From a virus (Duplodnaviria; Caudoviricetes): 52,935 nucleotides of DNA. The DNA lies in IMG/VR virus record IMGVR_UViG_3300042868_013143, positions 1-52,935 of that record; one strand, 5' to 3'. Under the pieces are notes generated by a model, which was not told the DNA's origin, ran no database searches, and worked only from the letters and a program-made list of their open reading frames with translations. This document shows, piece after piece, positions 19,920 to 43,777 of the stretch. How positions within the stretch are numbered: position 1 is the first letter of the stretch; each line of letters starts with the position of its first letter. A program made the position numbers and the translations under genes.

Positions 19920-20909
19920 ATGCAAAATTTAATTTTAGAAGAAAATATTTCTGATAACTATAAGGTTAGAACAGAAGAAAATGTTCGAAACTCAGACTTA
20001 ACATTGGCTATTGCTATTGACTTTGAAAGTTTTGGTGAGAAAATTACCAAGGAGTTAACTGTTAAGGCTAACAAGAAGTATATAGCAGTTTATCCTGATG
20101 GTGATCCAATTGAAAAAGCAGCAAAGATTGTTGCAAAGATGAATGAGTTGAACTTGCCACAAAAATTTATTTTGAATATTGCAGGAAATGGTTTGTCAAT
20201 AATGAAAGGTCAAATACTTCAAAATGAGGCTGATGAGTTTACTTATATCTTGCTAAAGACAATCAGTCAAAATCCAAAATTAAATAGCAAGATAGGGTCT
20301 GTAAGAACGGGCGGTCAATCAGGTTTTGATGAAGCTGGCGCAAAAGCAGCCATCAAGCTTGGGTTTACAACTGTTGTGCATATGCCAAAAGGTTTTAAGA
20401 TGAGAAACCAAGACGGTAAGGATGTAACAATGTCTTATGAGCACGCAAAGCTTAGATTTGAAATTTTAAAATCAAAAATCATATATATTGATATGGACGA
20501 TACAATTTGTGACTATAGTGGTTTGTGGAGTATTTATAAAGAAAAGTTTCCTGGCGTACAATACCCTCAGTCAAAATTTGGATTTTTTTCCAGATTAAAA
20601 CCTATTGAGGGAGCTCTAGAATCTATAAGTTTATTAGAAAAATATTACGATGTTTTTATTCTAACAAGACCCTCTATTAAAAACCTTCATTCGTATTCTG
20701 AAAAAGCGGAGTGGGTAGAAAAATATTTAGGTGAAGAATATTTAGAAAAGTTAATTTTATGTCCTGATAAATCACTAGTAAAAGGAAATTTCTTAATTGA
20801 TGATTATGATAAAAATGGTCAAACAGAATTTGAAGGTGAATTTATTAAATTTAAAACTGAAATGTTTCCTAATTGGGAAAGTGTTGTAAAATATTTAATA
20901 AAAATATAA
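19920..20909 (+). CDS. SLOG (YpsA/MoCo-carrier-like) domain fused to a HAD 5'(3')-deoxyribonucleotidase
   Basis: RTEENVRNSDLTL, LNIAGN, TGGQSGFDEAG; then YIDMDDT...LIDD. Confidence 0.8.
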   Translation: MQNLILEENISDNYKVRTEENVRNSDLTLAIAIDFESFGEKITKELTVKANKKYIAVYPDGDPIEKAAKIVAKMNELNLPQKFILNIAGNGLSIMKGQILQNEADEFTYILLKTISQNPKLNSKIGSVRTGGQSGFDEAGAKAAIKLGFTTVVHMPKGFKMRNQDGKDVTMSYEHAKLRFEILKSKIIYIDMDDTICDYSGLWSIYKEKFPGVQYPQSKFGFFSRLKPIEGALESISLLEKYYDVFILTRPSIKNLHSYSEKAEWVEKYLGEEYLEKLILCPDKSLVKGNFLIDDYDKNGQTEFEGEFIKFKTEMFPNWESVVKYLIKI

Positions 20910-20955: not shown

Positions 20956-21747
20956 ATGAAATTAAGCGAGATTGACAAACAAGATATAGTAAAATTATCT
21001 GAAATTCATAAACAAAGTGAGATAGCTATAATGTATAGCATATCCCAAACGACAGTGTTTAAAATTTTGAAAGATAATAACATAAAGAGAAAAAGAAATA
21101 GATTAAATCTAAGCAGGTTAGCAATTGATTTTAATTATTTTGATAATATAGATTGTGGAACTAAAGCTTATTGGCTTGGATTTATATCTGCGGATGGTTG
21201 TTTAAAAGGCGGAAAGTTGAGAGTGACTTCTAAAGATTTAGATATTTTAGAAAAGCTAAAATCAGACTTAAAATCAGATCATGCAATTACTATAAACAAA
21301 TCTATACACAAAAAGACAAAAAAAGAATATGTGTCATATATTTTACAAATTACAAATAGTGCATTTACTAATAAGTTAACTAAGTTTATTCCACAAGATA
21401 AAAGTAATAATTTTAATATTCCAGCAATAAAGAAGGAGTTATATCCTTATTTTATTGCTGGAATGGTAGACGGGGATGGTTCTTTTAGTGTAAACTCAAA
21501 AGGGCAAATAAAAGCTTCAATCATATCTACAAAAGAGTGTTTGCAGCAAATTCAAGATTATTTGTTTGTAAATTTAAGTATAAAAAAAACTACATTACAA
21601 AATATCACAAAAAATGGTAATGTTTGGAAGCTTTTTGTCTATTCTAGCTCTAAAGAATTTTTAGAATTTATTTATTCCGATTCAAATAAAAACATTTATC
21701 TTAAAAGAAAACAAGAAAAGCTTAAAAATATGTTTATTAATACTTAA
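20956..21747 (+). CDS. Free-standing two-motif LAGLIDADG homing endonuclease with N-terminal HTH
   Basis: KAYWLGFISADG and YFIAGMVDGDGSF; C-terminal LKRK. Confidence 0.85.
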   Translation: MKLSEIDKQDIVKLSEIHKQSEIAIMYSISQTTVFKILKDNNIKRKRNRLNLSRLAIDFNYFDNIDCGTKAYWLGFISADGCLKGGKLRVTSKDLDILEKLKSDLKSDHAITINKSIHKKTKKEYVSYILQITNSAFTNKLTKFIPQDKSNNFNIPAIKKELYPYFIAGMVDGDGSFSVNSKGQIKASIISTKECLQQIQDYLFVNLSIKKTTLQNITKNGNVWKLFVYSSSKEFLEFIYSDSNKNIYLKRKQEKLKNMFINT

Positions 21748-21860: not shown

Positions 21861-22190
21861 GTGAAAACAATAGACGTTCTAAGTAAGTCCCTTGACAAGG
21901 CAAAACAAAAAGGCTACAAATCTTCCTTTGATTTTACATATGAAAAAGGTAGGATAATTGATGGTAAAACTTACTATGCAATTATATTCGATAAAGATTT
22001 TTGCAAGGCTATTTGGAGTGATGAAAAAACGTTTTTATCTTTCTCAGGATTACATCAACACTTAGGTGAAAATGTGGTTCTTTGGAAGTGGCATTTAAGA
22101 AATATGGTTGTTTCTGATAATCCAATAAAGTATTTAGAAGATAATCTAGAGTTGGATAGTTGGGAAAAAATAGAAAATGAAATTTATTAA
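21861..22190 (+). CDS. Hypothetical phage protein
   Basis: IIFDKDFCKAIW...WKWHLRNMV..PIKYL ORF. Confidence 0.7.
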   Translation: MKTIDVLSKSLDKAKQKGYKSSFDFTYEKGRIIDGKTYYAIIFDKDFCKAIWSDEKTFLSFSGLHQHLGENVVLWKWHLRNMVVSDNPIKYLEDNLELDSWEKIENEIY

Positions 22191-22215
22191 TTTATTTATA
22201 TAAAATGATAACAGG

Positions 22216-22497
22216 GTGGATGCTGTAAATTTTACATATTGGCTACAAGGTTTCTTTGAAGTATCAGACGCAAAGAAGTTAGATGAAAAGCAAGTTCAAG
22301 TTATTAAGGACCATCTAAATTTGGTTTTTAATAAAGTGACTCCTAATAGGGAATCATTCCCAAAAGGATCGACATTACAAGGGGATTCAAATGTTAATTT
22401 GTTTGTTGATAATCCTAGTATGTTTAATGGTGATAAAAAGTATTGTTCAACAACAACTTTTGACCTAAAAGATGTATCAACTAAAGTAATCTGCTAA
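22216..22497 (+). CDS. Hypothetical phage protein
   Basis: FTYWLQGFFE...IKDHL pattern typical of phage small proteins. Confidence 0.7.
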   Translation: MDAVNFTYWLQGFFEVSDAKKLDEKQVQVIKDHLNLVFNKVTPNRESFPKGSTLQGDSNVNLFVDNPSMFNGDKKYCSTTTFDLKDVSTKVIC

Positions 22498-22507
22498 CGC
22501 TATAGTT

Positions 22508-22768
22508 ATGAGAATAAGAGGTAAACTTTATATTGAAAAGCTAGATGTAGAAATGTATAAAGGTATTGCCGACCTAGCTCAAAGCAAAATGAAAAAAATT
22601 GACGAGGAATTAATTCCGAGTTTTATAATAGAAGAGGCAATAAGTTATTATAATGATTTAGAAAAGTATGAACTTTGTCAAAAAATAAAAGGTTTCTTTT
22701 CTATAAATCCTAGTTATACAATAAAAATAACTAGAGCTGAATGGTTCGGTTTGGTTTGTTGCAAATAA
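22508..22768 (+). CDS. Hypothetical protein with a UVR-like motif
   Basis: EEAISYY..EKYELCQKIK. Confidence 0.6.
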   Translation: MRIRGKLYIEKLDVEMYKGIADLAQSKMKKIDEELIPSFIIEEAISYYNDLEKYELCQKIKGFFSINPSYTIKITRAEWFGLVCCK

Positions 22769-22780
22769 AAAAGCAAGAAT

Positions 22781-23038
22781 ATGAAATGTCCAGTTTGTGA
22801 AAAAGAAGAATTAAAAAGCTGTGTATATCCTGGAATGAGTACAAGTACTTTAATGTACTGTTCTCCTTATTATGATGAGGAAGGAAAATATCATTCTCAC
22901 GATTCTAATACACATACAACTCATTATAGTTGCTCCAATGGTCACAATTGGAGTGAGTCATCTACAGGAAAATGTCCATCTTGTGATTTCGGAAAAGATT
23001 CAAAAAAAGTTTGGATTAAAGATGAAAAAACTGAATAA
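22781..23038 (+). CDS. Small zinc-finger protein
   Basis: CPVC, CSNGH, CPSC. Confidence 0.7.
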   Translation: MKCPVCEKEELKSCVYPGMSTSTLMYCSPYYDEEGKYHSHDSNTHTTHYSCSNGHNWSESSTGKCPSCDFGKDSKKVWIKDEKTE

Positions 23039-23062
23039 TTTTTAAAAATATTTTGTTTTTTG

Positions 23063-23090
23063 TGTAACTTTTTTTATATTTGTACGTATA
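23063..23090 (+). promoter_or_regulatory. TGTAAC-N16-CGTA (ECF-like) promoter of tRNA operon 1
   Basis: One of 7 copies with invariant 16-nt spacer. Confidence 0.75.
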
Positions 23091-23121
23091 AAAGAAAAAA
23101 ATACATATTTATAAAGGTAAA

Positions 23122-23205
23122 ATGAAAACAACAGTAACAAATAGGAGATCTAGTTGGTCGAGTTCGAGAAGAGCCGAATCAGGGATTCTATTGTCTGCGC
23201 TGTAA
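23122..23205 (+). CDS. Attenuator leader peptide 1 (MKTTVTNRRSSWSSSRRAESGILLSAL)
   Basis: Ten consecutive Arg/Ser/Trp codons matching the downstream tRNAs; contains antiterminator strand GAATCAGGG. Confidence 0.8.
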   Translation: MKTTVTNRRSSWSSSRRAESGILLSAL

Positions 23206-23235
23206 AGATATAGTGCTTGAGCACAAGCTAATTTG

Positions 23236-23274
23236 AAACCCTGATTCTAAAAAAGAGTCAGGGTTTTTTATTTT
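23236..23274 (+). terminator. Attenuator terminator 1
   Basis: AAACCCTGATTCT-AAAAA-AGAGTCAGGGTTT plus T run; 5' arm is also complementary to 23176-23184. Confidence 0.85.
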
Positions 23275-23287
23275 AAATTAATTTATC

Positions 23288-23719
23288 ATGAGAGAAGAAG
23301 TTTATAATAAGTTGGTGCTAAAGCTAGGCGAGGAAAAAGCTGACGAAGTGCGTAAGGCTATGGATGAGGCAAATAAGCAACGAAAGAATGTTGAAAAGTG
23401 GAACAGAGAAAGAGATAAGAAATTTTTGGAAGTTGGAATTAAGAAAGAGGATTTAGAAGATTGTGCATATTATCATGGGGTTAGATTTAGAGGACATGGA
23501 ATAGCGCAGTGGGACAAGAAGCTTGATAGGTTTATAATAATAGCATATGAGTGGGGAGTTCCTGTTATTGAAAAGCTAGAACATTTTGTTGATGTTGTTG
23601 AAAAAAGATATGATGGATTTGTGCCGATAGAAGAGTTAGATAAAAATAAGTATTATGATATCAGGAAAATGGATCCTAAGAAAATTGAAGAAGAGGTAAA
23701 AAATAGAAAATTGGAATAA
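23288..23719 (+). CDS. Hypothetical phage protein (first gene after attenuator 1)
   Basis: 143-aa ORF. Confidence 0.75.
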   Translation: MREEVYNKLVLKLGEEKADEVRKAMDEANKQRKNVEKWNRERDKKFLEVGIKKEDLEDCAYYHGVRFRGHGIAQWDKKLDRFIIIAYEWGVPVIEKLEHFVDVVEKRYDGFVPIEELDKNKYYDIRKMDPKKIEEEVKNRKLE

Positions 23720-23727
23720 ATAAATAA

Positions 23728-23814
23728 GGAGGAATAAGAGCAGTTGGTCTAAGCTTGGCGGTCTTGAAAACCGTAGGCCCTAGTGGTGTGTGAGTTCGAG
23801 TCTCACTTCCTCCG
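23728..23814 (+). tRNA. tRNA-Ser(UGA)
   Basis: GGAGGAA/TTCCTCC acceptor, GCGGT-CTTGAAA-ACCGT, long variable arm, TTCGAGT loop, G73. Confidence 0.92.
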
Positions 23815-23830
23815 CTGAAAAAAAATTGAT

Positions 23831-24010
23831 ATGCAAGAGAGAATGATGTACTTAGGTAAGGAAAAAAACAAAAAAGTATATGAAAATTTTGATGCTAATT
23901 TTGATAAGTACAAAAAAAGGGCAATTGATAAAGGGTATAAAAATCCTAAGTTAAAAATTCTCAAAGAGAAATCAATAGTGAAATTCTATGTTGTTGTAGA
24001 GATAGAATAG
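23831..24010 (+). CDS. Small basic hypothetical protein (59 aa) inside the tRNA cluster
   Basis: Open frame ATG..TAG filling the spacer between two tRNAs. Confidence 0.6.
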   Translation: MQERMMYLGKEKNKKVYENFDANFDKYKKRAIDKGYKNPKLKILKEKSIVKFYVVVEIE

Positions 24011-24026
24011 AATTTTAAAATAACAT

Positions 24027-24097
24027 ACAGATGACAGGCTTGGTGTCGGTGGGAACTCCAAATTCTTCACGAGTCGCTTCGATTGCGGCCATCTGTG
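24027..24097 (+). tRNA. tRNA-Trp(CCA), atypical D arm
   Basis: ACAGATG/CATCTGT acceptor, GGGAA-CTCCAAA-TTCTT, GTCGC-TTCGATT-GCGGC, G73. Confidence 0.75.
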
Positions 24098-24106
24098 CTA
24101 TAATAA

Positions 24107-24192
24107 GGAAGATAAAGCGACAAGGTTGTCGTCCTCGCCTGCTAAGCGTAGGGTTCTGAAAGATGAATGGGAATCGTTTTCTCTGTCTTCCG
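24107..24192 (+). tRNA. tRNA-Ser(GCU), atypical T loop and anticodon stem
   Basis: GGAAGAT/GTCTTCC, CGC-CTGCTAA-GCG, long variable arm, G73. Confidence 0.75.
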
Positions 24193-24207
24193 CAAAAAAT
24201 AAATTAT

Positions 24208-24282
24208 GGCTCCGTAGCTCAATTGGAATAGAGCATTGGGATTCTACCCCAACGGTTATAGGTTCGAATCCTATCGGAGTTA
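24208..24282 (+). tRNA. tRNA-Arg(UCU)
   Basis: Canonical cloverleaf; TTGGG-ATTCTAC-CCCAA. Confidence 0.92.
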
Positions 24283-24299
24283 CAAGGGTGAAATAATAT

Positions 24300-24374
24300 G
24301 CCCCCATAGCTCAACTGCATTAGAGCACCGTTTTTCTACAGCGTCGGTTACAGGTTGGAATCCTGTTGGGGGTA
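24300..24374 (+). tRNA. tRNA-Arg(UCU), second copy with C19-G56
   Basis: GCCCCCA/TGGGGGT, loop TTTCTAC, T arm ACAGG-TTGGAAT-CCTGT. Confidence 0.82.
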
Positions 24375-24395
24375 CAAAAAAAATTTTTGTATTTG

Positions 24396-24423
24396 TGTAA
24401 CATTTATTATTTTTGTTCGTATA
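24396..24423 (+). promoter_or_regulatory. TGTAAC-N16-CGTA promoter upstream of the structured ncRNA region
   Basis: TGTAAC 24396-24401, CGTATA 24418-24423. Confidence 0.75.
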
Positions 24424-24433
24424 GATAAACAAA

Positions 24434-24883
24434 TGGCGAATTCTTTGGAGAATGATGTGCAGTCATGAGCCGTCATGCAAGGGACACCAAATCATAATAT
24501 GGTGTTAATGGATCGAAGCCCCGATTCGCCACTTTAATGTTCTTTGAAAAATTGAAAGTGAATGTGCAACGAAAGTTCTTGTAGGCATACAAGAGTGAGG
24601 TGGGTTCGAATCTCGTTTAATAATCCCAATGACATGGTGGGAGCCAAGTAGTTGAGAACACATTATATCCATTTTAGGGGAGGCGCTGATAAATTCCCCA
24701 TAATAGTGCTGAGTAAACAGGATCAGCACCACTTTCAATTGCATTAAAACCACTCAAGCGTAAAAAGGTCGTAAGTTGGGGAAAGGCACGGAGCAGATAC
24801 CAGAAATGACTCGTCAGAGGATATGGAATACGTTGACAGAAGATCCCAATGTTTTGACCCCGTGCAAGCCTCTGAGTGGTTTT
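24434..24883 (+). ncRNA. Unidentified structured ncRNA region (three closed domains)
   Basis: Closing helices 24434/24531, 24550/24740, 24746/24883; internal hairpins; GC-richer than flanks; no credible ORF. Confidence 0.65.
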
Positions 24884-24889
24884 TTATTT

Positions 24890-24996
24890 AGTCAGGTGGC
24901 GGAGTGGCTTAACGCTGAGCATACATAGAGTCTGGGAATGTGGTATGTATGATACCTATACACGGGGACTCGCAGGTTCGAATCCTGTCCTGGTTA
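24890..24996 (+). ncRNA. tRNA-like RNA with intact acceptor, D and T arms but no canonical anticodon arm
   Basis: AGTCAGG/CCTGGTT, GCG-GAGTGGCTTAA-CGC, GCAGG-TTCGAAT-CCTGT; ~55-nt insert in the middle. Confidence 0.7.
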
Positions 24997-25031
24997 CTAT
25001 ATTTTTTGTAAAAAAATTTATATTTATTATT

Positions 25032-25067
25032 ATGAAAACAAATAAAATATCTCTTCAGTTCTGGTAG
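25032..25067 (+). CDS. Possible third leader peptide (MKTNKISLQFW)
   Basis: MKT start 3 nt after TATTTATT; FW-stop lies in a hairpin ending 5 nt before the next ATG. Confidence 0.4.
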   Translation: MKTNKISLQFW

Positions 25068-25084
25068 TTTAAACCAGAATACAT

Positions 25085-25783
25085 ATGAATAGAAAAAATC
25101 CCCACTTTAAAGAGTGGTTAAAAGTTTGGGAGGAAGTCCAAACTTTAATTGATTACAAACGTAATCGTAATTGGATTCCATTGGAAAAGCCTTACAGAAA
25201 AGGCTATTGGATGTCTTTTGACCTTCGTGAAGATATTAAAAATCGTGAAGATGCTTGGGTGTTTTATACATGCATTGAATTGTTTGGTACACATACTTGG
25301 TGTAAAGACAAAACAATGACATATAAATCTAGAAAGAAAAAGCCAGAGCCAATTGCCCTTGAGAAGAAGTTAATATCAGAAGAGAAATATGAAAACTTGC
25401 CAAGCGCAGTTCAAAAATATTTTTCAGAATCATCTAGCTACAATAAAGGCTGGAATCCATATAGAAAAACTTATTATTGTAATGTTCCAGATTATTTCTT
25501 TGTATACAAGTTAGAACCTAGATGGATAACACACTATCAGGAAGTAGATTCTGTTATTGAGCAAGAAATAAGTGAGAAGCGTGATTATGTTGATAAGAGC
25601 CCAAAATTTCAAAATGTAGGAAAGTGGAGTTATAATGCTCCAAAGTCATTCTGCAAATTTTTAAACAGAAGCGATAGAAGACTTAACAAACAAGTTCTTC
25701 AAAAAAACTTGATGTCAGAAGATTGGGATAAGTATGAATATAAATATAATCACAGACATTACGCAAAATGGTTGTATTGGTAA
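25085..25783 (+). CDS. Basic, aromatic-rich hypothetical protein
   Basis: 232-aa ORF, IPLEKPYRKGYW..FDLREDI. Confidence 0.8.
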   Translation: MNRKNPHFKEWLKVWEEVQTLIDYKRNRNWIPLEKPYRKGYWMSFDLREDIKNREDAWVFYTCIELFGTHTWCKDKTMTYKSRKKKPEPIALEKKLISEEKYENLPSAVQKYFSESSSYNKGWNPYRKTYYCNVPDYFFVYKLEPRWITHYQEVDSVIEQEISEKRDYVDKSPKFQNVGKWSYNAPKSFCKFLNRSDRRLNKQVLQKNLMSEDWDKYEYKYNHRHYAKWLYW

Positions 25784-25813
25784 AAATTAAAAAATATTTA
25801 TTGAAAAAACCAA

Positions 25814-26818
25814 ATGATTTGTCAGCTTTATACATACAATGAAAATGGTCACTCTCTTGATCAGAATACAGCAGAACATTTTGCAAAAAGGTTTTCGCTA
25901 GACACTTTAAAAAAGGGTAAAGTACATTGGTTGAATTATCACTCTGTGGAATTCAAGGATGAACTATCCAAGATGTTTGATAATTTGGAAATTAGCCCTT
26001 TTATCTTAGAGGATATTTACAAGCTAGAAAAAAGACCAAAGGTTGAAGAATATGCAAATTGTATATTTTTTAAAGTTCAATCACTTCTTCCTGAAAAAGA
26101 TGAAAATCATTTAAACAAAGAAAGTGTGTCATTCATATTGGGTGATAATTTTTTAATTACCACCCAAGAACAGAAATCAGGACACTTTGATGCAGTAAGA
26201 GATAGAATAGAGAACAAGAAAGGTAAATTATGTTTTAAGGGTGCTGATTATTTGCTGTTTAGGTTGTTAGATGCCATTATTGATAATTACTTTGAAGTCA
26301 TAGAGTCAAACATTAAAAAAATCCAACAAATAGAAAAATCACTTTCAAAATCAGATAGCTCTGTATTAAAAGAAATTGAAATAGAAAAGAGAAAAATAAT
26401 GGAACTAAAGAAAATTGTTTTTCTAACTAAAGATGTTATTTCTCACATAGAAAGATTGGATAGTAATCTTATTAAAGAAGAAAACTTCTATTATTTTTCA
26501 GAACTAAAAGATGAATGCTTAACAATTTTAGATGAAATAGATACAGCCTCTCAAATGCTCGATGGTTTATCTAATTTATTCTACGCTATTCAAGGTCAGA
26601 GAATGAACGAGATAATGAAAATGCTTACGTTGGTTAGTACGATATTTATACCTATAACTTTTATAGCTGGAATATACGGAATGAACTTTAAGTATATGCC
26701 CGAATTAGAACAGCCATATGCTTATTATACAATATGGGGCATCATCATTATAACTGTCTTTTCTTTCTTGACTTTCTTTAAGAAAAAGGGGTGGTTAAAA
26801 AGTGGAAAAGATAAGTAG
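25814..26818 (+). CDS. corA: CorA Mg2+/Co2+ transporter
   Basis: RPKVEEY, MNEIMKMLT, IPITFIAGIYGMNF..MPEL signature, two C-terminal TMs. Confidence 0.95.
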   Translation: MICQLYTYNENGHSLDQNTAEHFAKRFSLDTLKKGKVHWLNYHSVEFKDELSKMFDNLEISPFILEDIYKLEKRPKVEEYANCIFFKVQSLLPEKDENHLNKESVSFILGDNFLITTQEQKSGHFDAVRDRIENKKGKLCFKGADYLLFRLLDAIIDNYFEVIESNIKKIQQIEKSLSKSDSSVLKEIEIEKRKIMELKKIVFLTKDVISHIERLDSNLIKEENFYYFSELKDECLTILDEIDTASQMLDGLSNLFYAIQGQRMNEIMKMLTLVSTIFIPITFIAGIYGMNFKYMPELEQPYAYYTIWGIIIITVFSFLTFFKKKGWLKSGKDK

Positions 26819-41326: not shown

Positions 41327-41397
41327 AAAAAATTCATACTGATTATCAGACATTTAAATGATATTTTTATTTTTTTTAAAAAAAGTTTTGTTTTTTG

Positions 41398-41425
41398 TGT
41401 AACTTTTTTTAATTTTGTACGTATA
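41398..41425 (+). promoter_or_regulatory. TGTAAC-N16-CGTA promoter of tRNA operon 2
   Basis: Near-identical to the 23063 copy, including flanks. Confidence 0.78.
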
Positions 41426-41476: not shown

Positions 41477-41605
41477 ATGAAAACAGTATTAACATATACA
41501 GCAAATATCCCCGCTATGCCGATGAACGGCTTAGGGAATGGGTATGCCCCTGCCGATTATAGCTTGGGAGAAGCGAGTGTGTTATACTTTAAAGTAATCT
41601 TATGA
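41477..41605 (+). CDS. Attenuator leader peptide 2 (MKTVLTYTANIPAMPMNGLGNGYAPADYSLGEASVLYFKVIL)
   Basis: 14 of 17 codons at 41510-41560 are Pro/Ala/Met/Gly/Tyr/Asp; contains antiterminator strand 41570-41586. Confidence 0.78.
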   Translation: MKTVLTYTANIPAMPMNGLGNGYAPADYSLGEASVLYFKVIL

Positions 41606-41634: not shown

Positions 41635-41670
41635 AAAAGCTCGTTTCGAAAGATTCGAGCTTTTTTGTTT
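41635..41670 (+). terminator. Attenuator terminator 2
   Basis: AAAAGCTCG..TC-GAAA-GA..CGAGCTTTT plus T run. Confidence 0.82.
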
Positions 41671-42922: not shown

Positions 42923-43543
42923 ATGCCAAGAAAAGAAAAGAAGTATCACTTCATTTATAAAACGACGAACTTATTGAGTGGTAAGTATTACATTGGAATG
43001 CACTCCACAGAAAACCTAGAAGATGGTTATTTGGGCTCAGGAAAAAGGTTGAGATATTCCATAAATAAATATGGTGCGGAAAACCATAAGAGAGAAATAC
43101 TTGAATTTGTTGACTCAAGAAAAGAGTTAATAAATAGAGAAAAAGAAATTGTTAATTTAGATGAAGTTGCAAAAGAGGAGTGCATGAACTTAATGGTTGG
43201 AGGTAAAGGTGGTTTTACACCAAACATTCAAAAAAAAGGTATTAGTGCTTGGTTAGATAAATACAAAGGAGGAGAAAGTCATAAAGAGTGGGCTAAAAAA
43301 GGCGGAATTAAGAGGTTTGAATTATATGGGATTCCAAAAAAATTCAAACCTGATTGGGTTGGCAGAAAACACACAGAAGAAACAAAAGAAAAAATGAGAA
43401 TTTCCAGCAAAGGTAAGAGTACTGGAAGTTTAAATTCACAATACGGAACTTTTTGGATTACGAAAGATGGGATTAACAAGAAAATAAAAAAAGAAGAATT
43501 AGATTTTTTTATCCAACAAGGATGGATTAGGGGTAGAAAATAA
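42923..43543 (+). CDS. SegB-like GIY-YIG homing endonuclease with NUMOD3 motif
   Basis: FIYKTTN..KYYIGMH..GYLGSG; GRKHTEETKEKM. Confidence 0.9.
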   Translation: MPRKEKKYHFIYKTTNLLSGKYYIGMHSTENLEDGYLGSGKRLRYSINKYGAENHKREILEFVDSRKELINREKEIVNLDEVAKEECMNLMVGGKGGFTPNIQKKGISAWLDKYKGGESHKEWAKKGGIKRFELYGIPKKFKPDWVGRKHTEETKEKMRISSKGKSTGSLNSQYGTFWITKDGINKKIKKEELDFFIQQGWIRGRK

Positions 43544-43628: not shown

Positions 43629-43777
43629 AAGAGGCTATATAGATTTGTTACTTCTATGTGGAACAGTTGGCGCAAGCCTTCGCAGTGTTCGAATCCTGCT
43701 CCCCCGACGAGGTTTTAATTCGGGGGATAGCCAAGTGGTAAAGGCAACTGTAAGAATTACTTCTATGATTTCCTCTT
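43629..43777 (+). ncRNA. YrlA-like Y RNA (circularly permuted tRNA-like domain)
   Basis: Order is T arm, closed acceptor stem, D arm; terminal helix AAGAGG/CCTCTT; GTTACTTC motif. Confidence 0.7.

Follow-up and report, generated by a model that had tools for sequence, protein, structure and literature searches.

Multivalent transcription attenuators are well known from enterobacteria, in which thrL senses threonine and isoleucine, and the leader of ilvGMEDA senses isoleucine, valine and leucine. In the trpL leader of Escherichia coli the terminator is more stable than the antiterminator, the choice between them is kinetic, the regulatory codons are placed in region 1, and termination is the default state. 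In this study we describe an element located upstream of a group of tRNA genes in the IMG/VR virus record IMGVR_UViG_3300042868_013143 (referred to below as the window, i.e. the whole stretch of DNA that was analysed: 52,935 bases, one contig, G+C content 32%). This element is probably a ribosome-mediated leader-peptide transcription attenuator of the trp/thr type, which gates a 143-aa open reading frame (ORF143) and five tRNA genes, and senses tRNA supply. It contains a 5'-leader ORF with a start and a stop codon, a run of cognate codons, a terminator placed between the ORF and the genes, an antiterminator, and a predicted 1:2 hairpin. The component parts are as follows.

23055-23090, + strand: promoter-like box TTTG..TGTAAC-N16-CGTATA, containing TATATTTG (regular expression search)
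23122-23205, + strand: leader ORF MKTTVTNRRSSWSSSRRAESGILLSAL, 27 codons plus TAA (ORF list; start 32 nt past the box)
23143-23172, + strand: regulatory run, made up of 10 codons for arginine (AGR only), serine or tryptophan, which also provides the 5' strand of the predicted 1:2 hairpin
23176-23184, + strand: arm 2, the antiterminator strand GAATCAGGG, codons 19-21
23235-23269, + strand: intrinsic terminator, comprising arm 3 (23239-23247), a loop, arm 4 (23255-23263) and a T-run (consensus scan, 23235-23267)

The analyses presented here demonstrate the sequence anatomy of this element, the recurrent match between leader codons and tRNAs, and the alternative pairings of the leader RNA. An attenuator had been proposed at this site in an earlier note on the same DNA, and the proposal withstood every in silico test that was run (recurrence, matching of leaders to tRNAs, changes confined to one set of residues, compensatory change and RNA folding).

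Like the thrL and ilvGMEDA leaders, the element combines a short ORF carrying a multi-amino-acid codon run with mutually exclusive 1:2, 2:3 and 3:4 pairings and a terminator before the regulated genes, and its predicted logic is also that stalling leads to readthrough. Unlike these leaders, it is phage-borne, it precedes tRNA genes and not genes of biosynthetic enzymes, it occurs as several units with different codon sets in one genome, and its sequence does not resemble the Rfam leader families. Since the regulated genes encode tRNAs, the loop would feed back on tRNA supply. The phage leader resembles trpL in that its terminator is the more stable structure, the choice is kinetic and the regulatory codons lie in region 1. 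It differs from trpL, whose default is termination, in that the leader without a ribosome is predicted to adopt the antiterminator (default ON), and its stop codon lies 19 nt past arm 2, whereas that of trpL is placed just before region 2.

The element may also be compared with T-box riboswitches, in which the state of a specific tRNA is likewise read and a choice made between terminator and antiterminator. T-box riboswitches, however, bind uncharged tRNA directly and need no ORF, whereas the phage leader contains a reading frame with its own ATG and stop codon; no T-box was matched at E<=1, as judged by the Rfam model alone. A cmscan search of positions 22000-26500 against Rfam (E<=1) returned three tRNAs and two weak sRNA-like matches on the terminator, and no curated leader family.

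Within the literature searched, the nearest published case is the inducible long tRNA array (trn operon) of Anabaena PCC 7120. This array is reported to be controlled by the TrcR repressor and, similarly to the proposed phage system, represents an extra tRNA set that is silent and becomes switched on when translation is impaired (PMC8421152, PMC10272220). Its control differs from that of the phage leader in being exerted by a protein repressor at the promoter. The words "leader", "attenuat" and "terminator" do not occur in PMC10272220, nor does "attenuation" in PMC8421152. No paper on leader-peptide control of tRNA genes was found by full-text searching, the reach of which excluded about 1.7 million PubMed Central articles and all subscription-only papers.

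Leader codons and downstream tRNA genes

Codons 8-17 of the leader (23143-23172) read AGG AGA TCT AGT TGG TCG AGT TCG AGA AGA, exactly as the earlier note had stated. The genes located past the terminator are the following.

23288-23719, + strand: ORF143, the first gene past the terminator (ORF list)
23728-23815, + strand: tRNA-Ser(UGA) (ARAGORN default and Rfam, 48.5 bits)
23831-24010, + strand: ORF of 59 aa between tRNA genes (ORF list)
24027-24098, + strand: tRNA-Trp(CCA), with a non-canonical D arm (ARAGORN -ps only)
24105-24191, + strand: tRNA-Ser(GCU)-like gene, with a degenerate T arm (ARAGORN -ps80 only)
24208-24283, + strand: tRNA-Arg(UCU), copy 1 (ARAGORN default and Rfam, 63.6 bits)
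24300-24375, + strand: tRNA-Arg(UCU), copy 2 (ARAGORN default and Rfam, 51.4 bits)

Codons readable by these five tRNAs constitute 11.0% of the 11,661 codons in window ORFs of at least 200 aa. In all six frames of the window, no such run exceeds that of 10 codons in the leader; just three runs of at least five such codons exist there, the other two being of exactly five. In the leader after Met1, 12 of 26 codons are readable by the five tRNAs (2.9 expected, P=5e-6), and a run of 10 was not obtained in any of 50,000 simulations of the leader. First-order Markov simulation of the whole window produced a run of at least 10 in 1 of 200 cases, which leaves some room for chance. Taken together with the possibilities that the run is a relic of a tRNA sequence or an RNA that binds tRNA directly, its codon content being in each case a by-product, this explanation appears to us the least probable of those considered, and scarcely credible. 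It can draw on the presence of AGTTGGTC and GAGTTCGAG in the leader, both of which also occur (by eye) in the D and T loops of the tRNA-Ser gene at 23728-23815. The corresponding run in L100, one of the related metagenome loci described below (designated by L and a number), nevertheless has AGTTCTAGC in place of the window's AGTTCGAGA, a synonymous change that breaks the likeness to the T loop and keeps serine. We therefore rejected an origin of the run from a tRNA relic, since L100 has TCT where the window has TCG. Neither a T-box nor any other Rfam family was matched at E<=1, and chance cannot explain the nine matched units presented below.

The claim that all five tRNAs are encoded downstream stands in part. 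Ser(UGA) and both copies of Arg(UCU) are canonical, whereas Trp(CCA) and Ser(GCU) were detected at relaxed thresholds only, and neither scored with the Rfam tRNA model, even at E<=10 on a 211-base slice. The Trp(CCA) gene differs from its copy in L078 at eight positions, all of which (by eye) fall within the acceptor, anticodon or T stems with pairing kept; they include three double compensatory pairs, and the anticodon loop CTCCAAA is unchanged. These substitutions point to a gene under tRNA-like constraint. The Ser(GCU)-like gene shows no differences in L078; this comparison is therefore uninformative on it, and judging by its sequence it is doubtful as a working tRNA. Were it dead, 8 of the 10 codons of the run would still be covered.

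As further evidence of a match at the isoacceptor level, the earlier note had pointed to the exclusive use of AGR codons for arginine, with no CGN. This argument does not hold within the window, because AGR accounts for 86% of all window Arg codons and four such codons in succession are expected by chance (0.86^4 = 0.55); the observation is thus not significant. As regards serine, TCG accounts for 3% of its codons in the long ORFs of the window, yet for two of the five Ser codons in the run, and at least one TCG is retained in the runs of L078, L100 and L120. Slow codons may have been deliberately chosen here.

Alternative structures of the leader RNA

Arm 3 of the terminator is CCCTGATTC (23239-23247) and arm 4 is GAGTCAGGG (23255-23263), followed by TTTTTTATTTT. 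The terminator was also recovered by an independent consensus scan, as a hairpin of 14 pairs, five of them G-C, at 23235-23267. The perfect pairing claimed between 23176-23184 and 23239-23247 was confirmed: arm 2 is the exact complement of arm 3 (9 of 9 Watson-Crick pairs). Arm 3 and arm 4 likewise form nine pairs, including the single G-U that had been described, and because arm 3 is common to both helices, these are mutually exclusive, again as claimed. The free energies, which the earlier note had left to be computed, are the same for the two 9-bp helices (-13.5 kcal/mol each), while the whole terminator hairpin has a value of -18.0 kcal/mol. The leader and terminator together fold with z=-4.12, and none of 200 shuffled sequences folded as well. 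Moreover, arm 2 is the best partner of the terminator 5' arm, and in this it was beaten by none of 300 codon shuffles.

When the RNA is cut at 23250, i.e. with arm 4 absent, arm 2 becomes the partner of arm 3 in the minimum free energy (MFE) structure. For the RNA ending at this position, folded with an assumed ribosome footprint of 30 nt, the antiterminator is the MFE structure (pair probability of at least 0.96) in the absence of a ribosome or with the ribosomal A site at codons 1-14; it decays with the A site at codons 15-16, becomes impossible at codons 17-26 and returns at codons 27-28. The MFE structure of the full-length RNA consists of a 1:2 hairpin, in which 23137-23165 pairs with 23171-23194, together with the terminator. 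This hairpin, a predicted anti-antiterminator, overlaps the regulatory codons.

On the basis of these structures the following mechanism can be proposed. Transcription would start at the TGTAAC-N16-CGTATA box, and a ribosome would enter the 27-codon leader as RNA polymerase moves on. If tRNA-Arg(UCU), tRNA-Ser(UGA/GCU) or tRNA-Trp were scarce, the ribosome would stall within codons 8-14, covering region 1 and leaving arm 2 free; arm 2 would then capture arm 3 as it emerges, no terminator would form, and the tRNA genes would be transcribed. If the run were read fast, the ribosome would pass over arm 2, which behind it would refold on the codon run (1:2), so that arm 3 would pair with arm 4 and transcription would stop at about 23264-23272. 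With no translation at all, readthrough is predicted. The net effect would be negative feedback on the supply of exactly those tRNAs that the operon encodes.

The same three-state picture was obtained for 7 of 8 tested units: in the full RNA, arm 2 is paired with sequence upstream of it, and in RNA lacking arm 4 it is paired with arm 3. Exceptional in this respect are the unit WIN-B, in which the antiterminator is kept even in the full RNA, and L120, in which arm 2 pairs partly with arm 3 on the truncated RNA. A compensatory change also affects this helix: a T-A pair of arm 2 and arm 3 in the window corresponds to C-G in L100, and the T retained in arm 4 can pair with either base.

In RNA-library runs X18 and X19, contigs cover scattered parts of the window, with no 3' ends readable. 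One contig from X18 (151 nt, 0 differences) covers 23213-23363 and thus extends across the terminator; as the library may contain DNA, this is weak evidence. A joint 23039->24396 in X9, which would delete the whole cassette, was not trusted, its short side being 28 letters long and located in the repeated promoter.

Related units in metagenomes and in a second phage lineage

A second unit is present in the window, and its leader is rich in P/A/M/G/Y/D. The tRNAs encoded past it are Pro, Asp, Tyr, Pro, Ala, Tyr, Gly, Gly and Met.

41477-41605, + strand: sibling leader ORF of 42 codons, MKTVLTYTANIPAMPMNGLGNGYAPADY..., containing ..IPAMPMNGLGNGYAPADY.. (box at 41397)
41639-41666, + strand: sibling terminator (hairpin -9.4)

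The segment GAAGCGAG of the sibling ORF can pair with the 5' arm of its terminator (-12.1), a value equalled by 1% of codon shuffles. The sibling leader is identical in L001 and L002, though the flanking gene differs. Within the second tRNA operon, positions 43629-43777 look (by eye) like a circularly permuted tRNA-like gene, in which the 3' half (T arm and acceptor strand) precedes the 5' half (acceptor strand and D arm), with TTACTTCTATG repeated at both outer ends.

Scanning with the box pattern identified two relatives in IMG/VR (L001 and L002) and 59 metagenome stretches, from which those with a related-looking context were analysed. With a loosened promoter pattern, 74 of 76 stretches were judged by eye to be chance matches (G+C-rich spacers, no leader), the relatives again being L001 and L002 only. 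The leaders identified fall into three classes. Class A (Ser/Arg/Trp) comprises the window type, found also in L111, L101, L078 and L092, and a divergent type (MKNITTNSRWSWRSSSSSRV..) in L120 and L100. The L120 leader precedes four Ser, two Trp and four Arg tRNAs; those called by ARAGORN at default (all but Ser(gga), detected only at -ps90) read 13 of its 27 codons, with a run of 12. Class B (Pro/Ala/Met/Gly/Tyr/Asp) is represented by the second unit of the window, and in a divergent form by L088 and L103. Class C (Leu/Val/Phe/Arg) includes one type in L094, L115 and L130 and another in L095 and L131, placed ahead of Phe, Val, Leu and Arg tRNAs. In L131, the leader ..VVRLFVVVLFVQLFL.. is followed by Phe, Val, Leu and Arg(acg), which cover 14 of 26 codons, with a run of 11. 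The Arg codon of class C is CGA or CGC (3% and 1% of window Arg codons, respectively), and the downstream Arg tRNA has the anticodon ACG or GCG. Judging from these sequences, class C relatives offer better evidence of matching at the isoacceptor level than anything inside the window.

Comparison of class A leaders reveals how the run has changed. Between the window and L078 there are two changes, TCT->TCA and AGT->AGC, both synonymous. Between the window type and L120/L100 the residues are reshuffled (R->S, S->W, S->R) and a three-codon insertion (AGC TCA AGT) is present, and the reshuffled runs never leave the Ser/Arg/Trp set. Such changes fit selection on which tRNAs get used, not on a peptide or an RNA motif. 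In L111, L101 and L078 the leader ORF is 92-99% identical to that of the window and the next gene, ORF143, 76-86%; for leader plus terminator the identity is 92-100%, and for the flanking ORFs 76-99%.

Units of the same organization are present in a second lineage. The Lon-like protease of the window is about 52% identical to that of the uncultured phage LR745206.1 (634,780 bp; 61 tRNA matches), in which we found, at loci L136-L139, six further units composed of a short ORF, a strong terminator and tRNAs. Their leaders (with the amino acids of interest in brackets) and tRNAs are listed below.

MTTNSTHKNFSKSHKWFS... (H/K/F/W/S): tRNAs His, Phe, His, Phe, Trp, Lys x4, Arg, Ser
...SYESYYEE... (E/Y): tRNAs Glu x3, Tyr, Glu, Tyr
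MKNLNNISIAVIGNGAGAI... (I/G/A): tRNAs Ile, Gly, Met, Gly, Gly, Ala
MTTMNLNMTMNLTLNVVNITL.NIR... (N/L/T/M/V/I/R): tRNAs Asn, Arg, Leu, Val, Ile, Thr, Met
...PVNPQPQDQDP... (P/D): tRNAs Pro, Asp x4, Pro
MTTTQQIQQQQINQTD (Q): tRNAs Gln x3

The tRNA sets of LR745206.1 were delimited by our own choice, each extending from a terminator up to the following leader or to the locus end. The TGTAAC-N16-CGTA box is absent from L136, the LR745206.1 locus scanned for it.

The conservation of the ORF, and the K/T/N-rich N-termini that the leaders have in common, might suggest that the short ORF encodes a functional small protein, or that the sole role of its translation is to stabilise or protect the transcript, with a terminator that is fixed and leaky. 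We regard this as very improbable. Comparison of the window with L120 shows arginine, serine and tryptophan swapped freely within their set, a degree of change incompatible with a folded peptide. In addition, the leaders of L094 and of the third LR745206.1 unit (LR-3) have the N-terminus MKNLNNIS in common, after which they diverge into Leu/Val/Phe and Ile/Gly/Ala, respectively, each matching its own tRNAs. Finally, arm 2 duplicates arm 4 in all three classes.

The correspondence between leaders and tRNAs was assessed at the amino-acid level by a permutation test including nine non-homologous units (three of the window family and six of LR745206.1). Homologous duplicates were left out (L120, L100, L078, L101, L111, L092, L088, L103, L001, L002, L094, L115, L130 and L095), as were an ARAGORN "???" call in L139 and a candidate in L138, which looks like an ordinary gene end (ORF of 59 aa, weak hairpin of -6.4). 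For each of the nine tRNA sets the top-scoring leader was its own. The summed z was 37.5, compared with 0.2 +/- 6.0 for shuffled pairings, and the observed score was reached by 1 of 200,000 permutations, which is the rate of drawing the true pairing itself (about 0.6 expected).

These results bear on a further explanation, according to which the element is a true leader-peptide attenuator that reports amino-acid starvation or general translation stress, its main product being ORF143, with the tRNAs merely co-transcribed. A stalled ribosome cannot distinguish a missing amino acid from a missing tRNA, and in class A units ORF143 is always placed directly past the terminator. In classes B and C and in all six LR745206.1 units, however, the tRNAs are directly past the terminator and there is no such ORF; in 9 of 9 units the composition of the leader follows that of the tRNA set; and amino-acid starvation is not relieved by making tRNA. 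We therefore consider this explanation improbable, though less so than that of a small protein, and favour an attenuator that senses tRNA supply.

Several points weigh against such an attenuator. Leader translation, ribosome stalling, termination and the sign of the response are inferred. Of the five tRNAs, two are non-canonical, and when the three default tRNAs alone are considered, the leader retains 9 readable codons of 26 (P=1e-4) with a longest run of just three (P=0.01); the background codon use was moreover taken from the window alone. Under strict wobble, class B is marginal (13/41, P=0.09, and 16/41, P=0.05, in the window; 13/38, P=0.10, in L088), and the class C leader of L094 gives P=0.06. 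As regards the structures, the full transcript at equilibrium always prefers the terminator, and for this reason the choice between terminator and antiterminator must be kinetic. If the footprint is 30 nt, arm 2 would be masked by a ribosome stalled at the final two codons of the run (16-17), and would be exposed when a ribosome waits at the stop codon; under replete conditions, termination would therefore have to depend on the 1:2 hairpin or on timing. L120 has a mismatch in both helices, and where the arms are short (6 nt), or in the case of its mismatched 8-nt arm, arm 2 is not significant alone: the codon-shuffle fractions for arm 2 are 0.07-0.24 in L088, L103, L094, L115, L130 and L120. 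The terminator finder, in turn, failed on L095 and L131.

Genomic setting and the control of phage tRNA supply

The window is clearly phage DNA, as it encodes ribonucleotide reductase, a helicase, a Lon-like protease, a DNA ligase and homing endonucleases. DNA near-identical to it is contained in lake-water metagenome runs, and a blastn search of 22700-24500 against cultured and deposited phages returned tRNA pieces only. Homing endonuclease genes accompany both tRNA operons: a LAGLIDADG endonuclease is encoded upstream of the first (20956-21747), and a GIY-YIG/NUMOD3 enzyme within the second (42923-43543). The phage also encodes a CorA-like Mg2+ transporter (25814-26818; Pfam E=5e-64) and a permuted YpsA/SLOG domain fused to a 5'-nucleotidase domain (19920-20909).

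ORF143 occupies the same position in L111, L101, L078 and L120 (51-84% aa identity). It has no Pfam or PHROG match, no Atlas neighbour and no relative in IMG/VR, and its AlphaFold model, built with five sequences, has a pLDDT of 56.6 and a pTM of 0.33. The 59-aa ORF at 23831-24010 is also without a Pfam or PHROG match.

The sequence TGTAAC-N16-CGTATA is promoter-like. It occurs in exactly three copies in the window (23062; 24395-24423; 41397-41425), all on the + strand and each ahead of RNA genes, and in the metagenome loci it is likewise placed upstream of leaders or tRNAs. The third box copy (24395-25070) has no leader ORF; it is followed by an ORF-free stretch of about 640 bases resembling structured RNAs, one of which starts with GGCGAAT... 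and closes with ...ATTCGCC, and T-loop-like words are present. This stretch had no Rfam match at E<=1. In L086, L099 and L112, tRNA genes (Met then Glu, or Asp then Glu) come straight after the box, with neither a leader ORF nor a terminator, and the tRNA blocks of this phage group are thus not all gated. In L087, a tRNA with the anticodon CTA, labelled Pyl by ARAGORN, is located 373-445 bases past the box and would decode the amber stop codon. The TAnnTTTG word in the promoters is a lead to the host, not a result, and the same is true of the reported assignment of 630-kb-class phages to Bacteroidota.

Phage tRNAs have been proposed to compensate for codon usage, to replace tRNAs lost in host shut-off, or to permit escape from tRNA-cutting defences. 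We know of no account of how phage tRNA genes are regulated or of why phages carry them; nor, to our knowledge, has feedback of tRNA genes through translation of their own codons been described in any organism. What would be new in the element is that classical attenuation is turned onto tRNA genes. With a leader composed of the operon's own codons, tRNA supply itself would become the sensed quantity, and the demand for tRNA would be tied directly to the expression of tRNA genes. If this is true, tRNA genes are regulated by the translation of their own codons, and attenuation is extended from amino-acid operons to the decoding machinery.

We put forward, more tentatively and as a possibility that we would not yet call probable, that huge lake phages, the hosts of which are probably Bacteroidota, possess a distributed sensor of the tRNA pool. 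It would consist of one codon-testing leader per tRNA block, each refilling depleted species, with modular leaders (a common N-terminus) whose run is rewritten as the block changes. The units, which are modular and about 180 nt long, could be natural sensors of individual tRNA species, and the content of each leader predicts the tRNAs that its block should supply, including non-canonical genes missed by tRNA finders. If such a system operates, only those tRNA species that are depleted by infection, by host shut-off or by tRNA-cutting host defences would be refilled.

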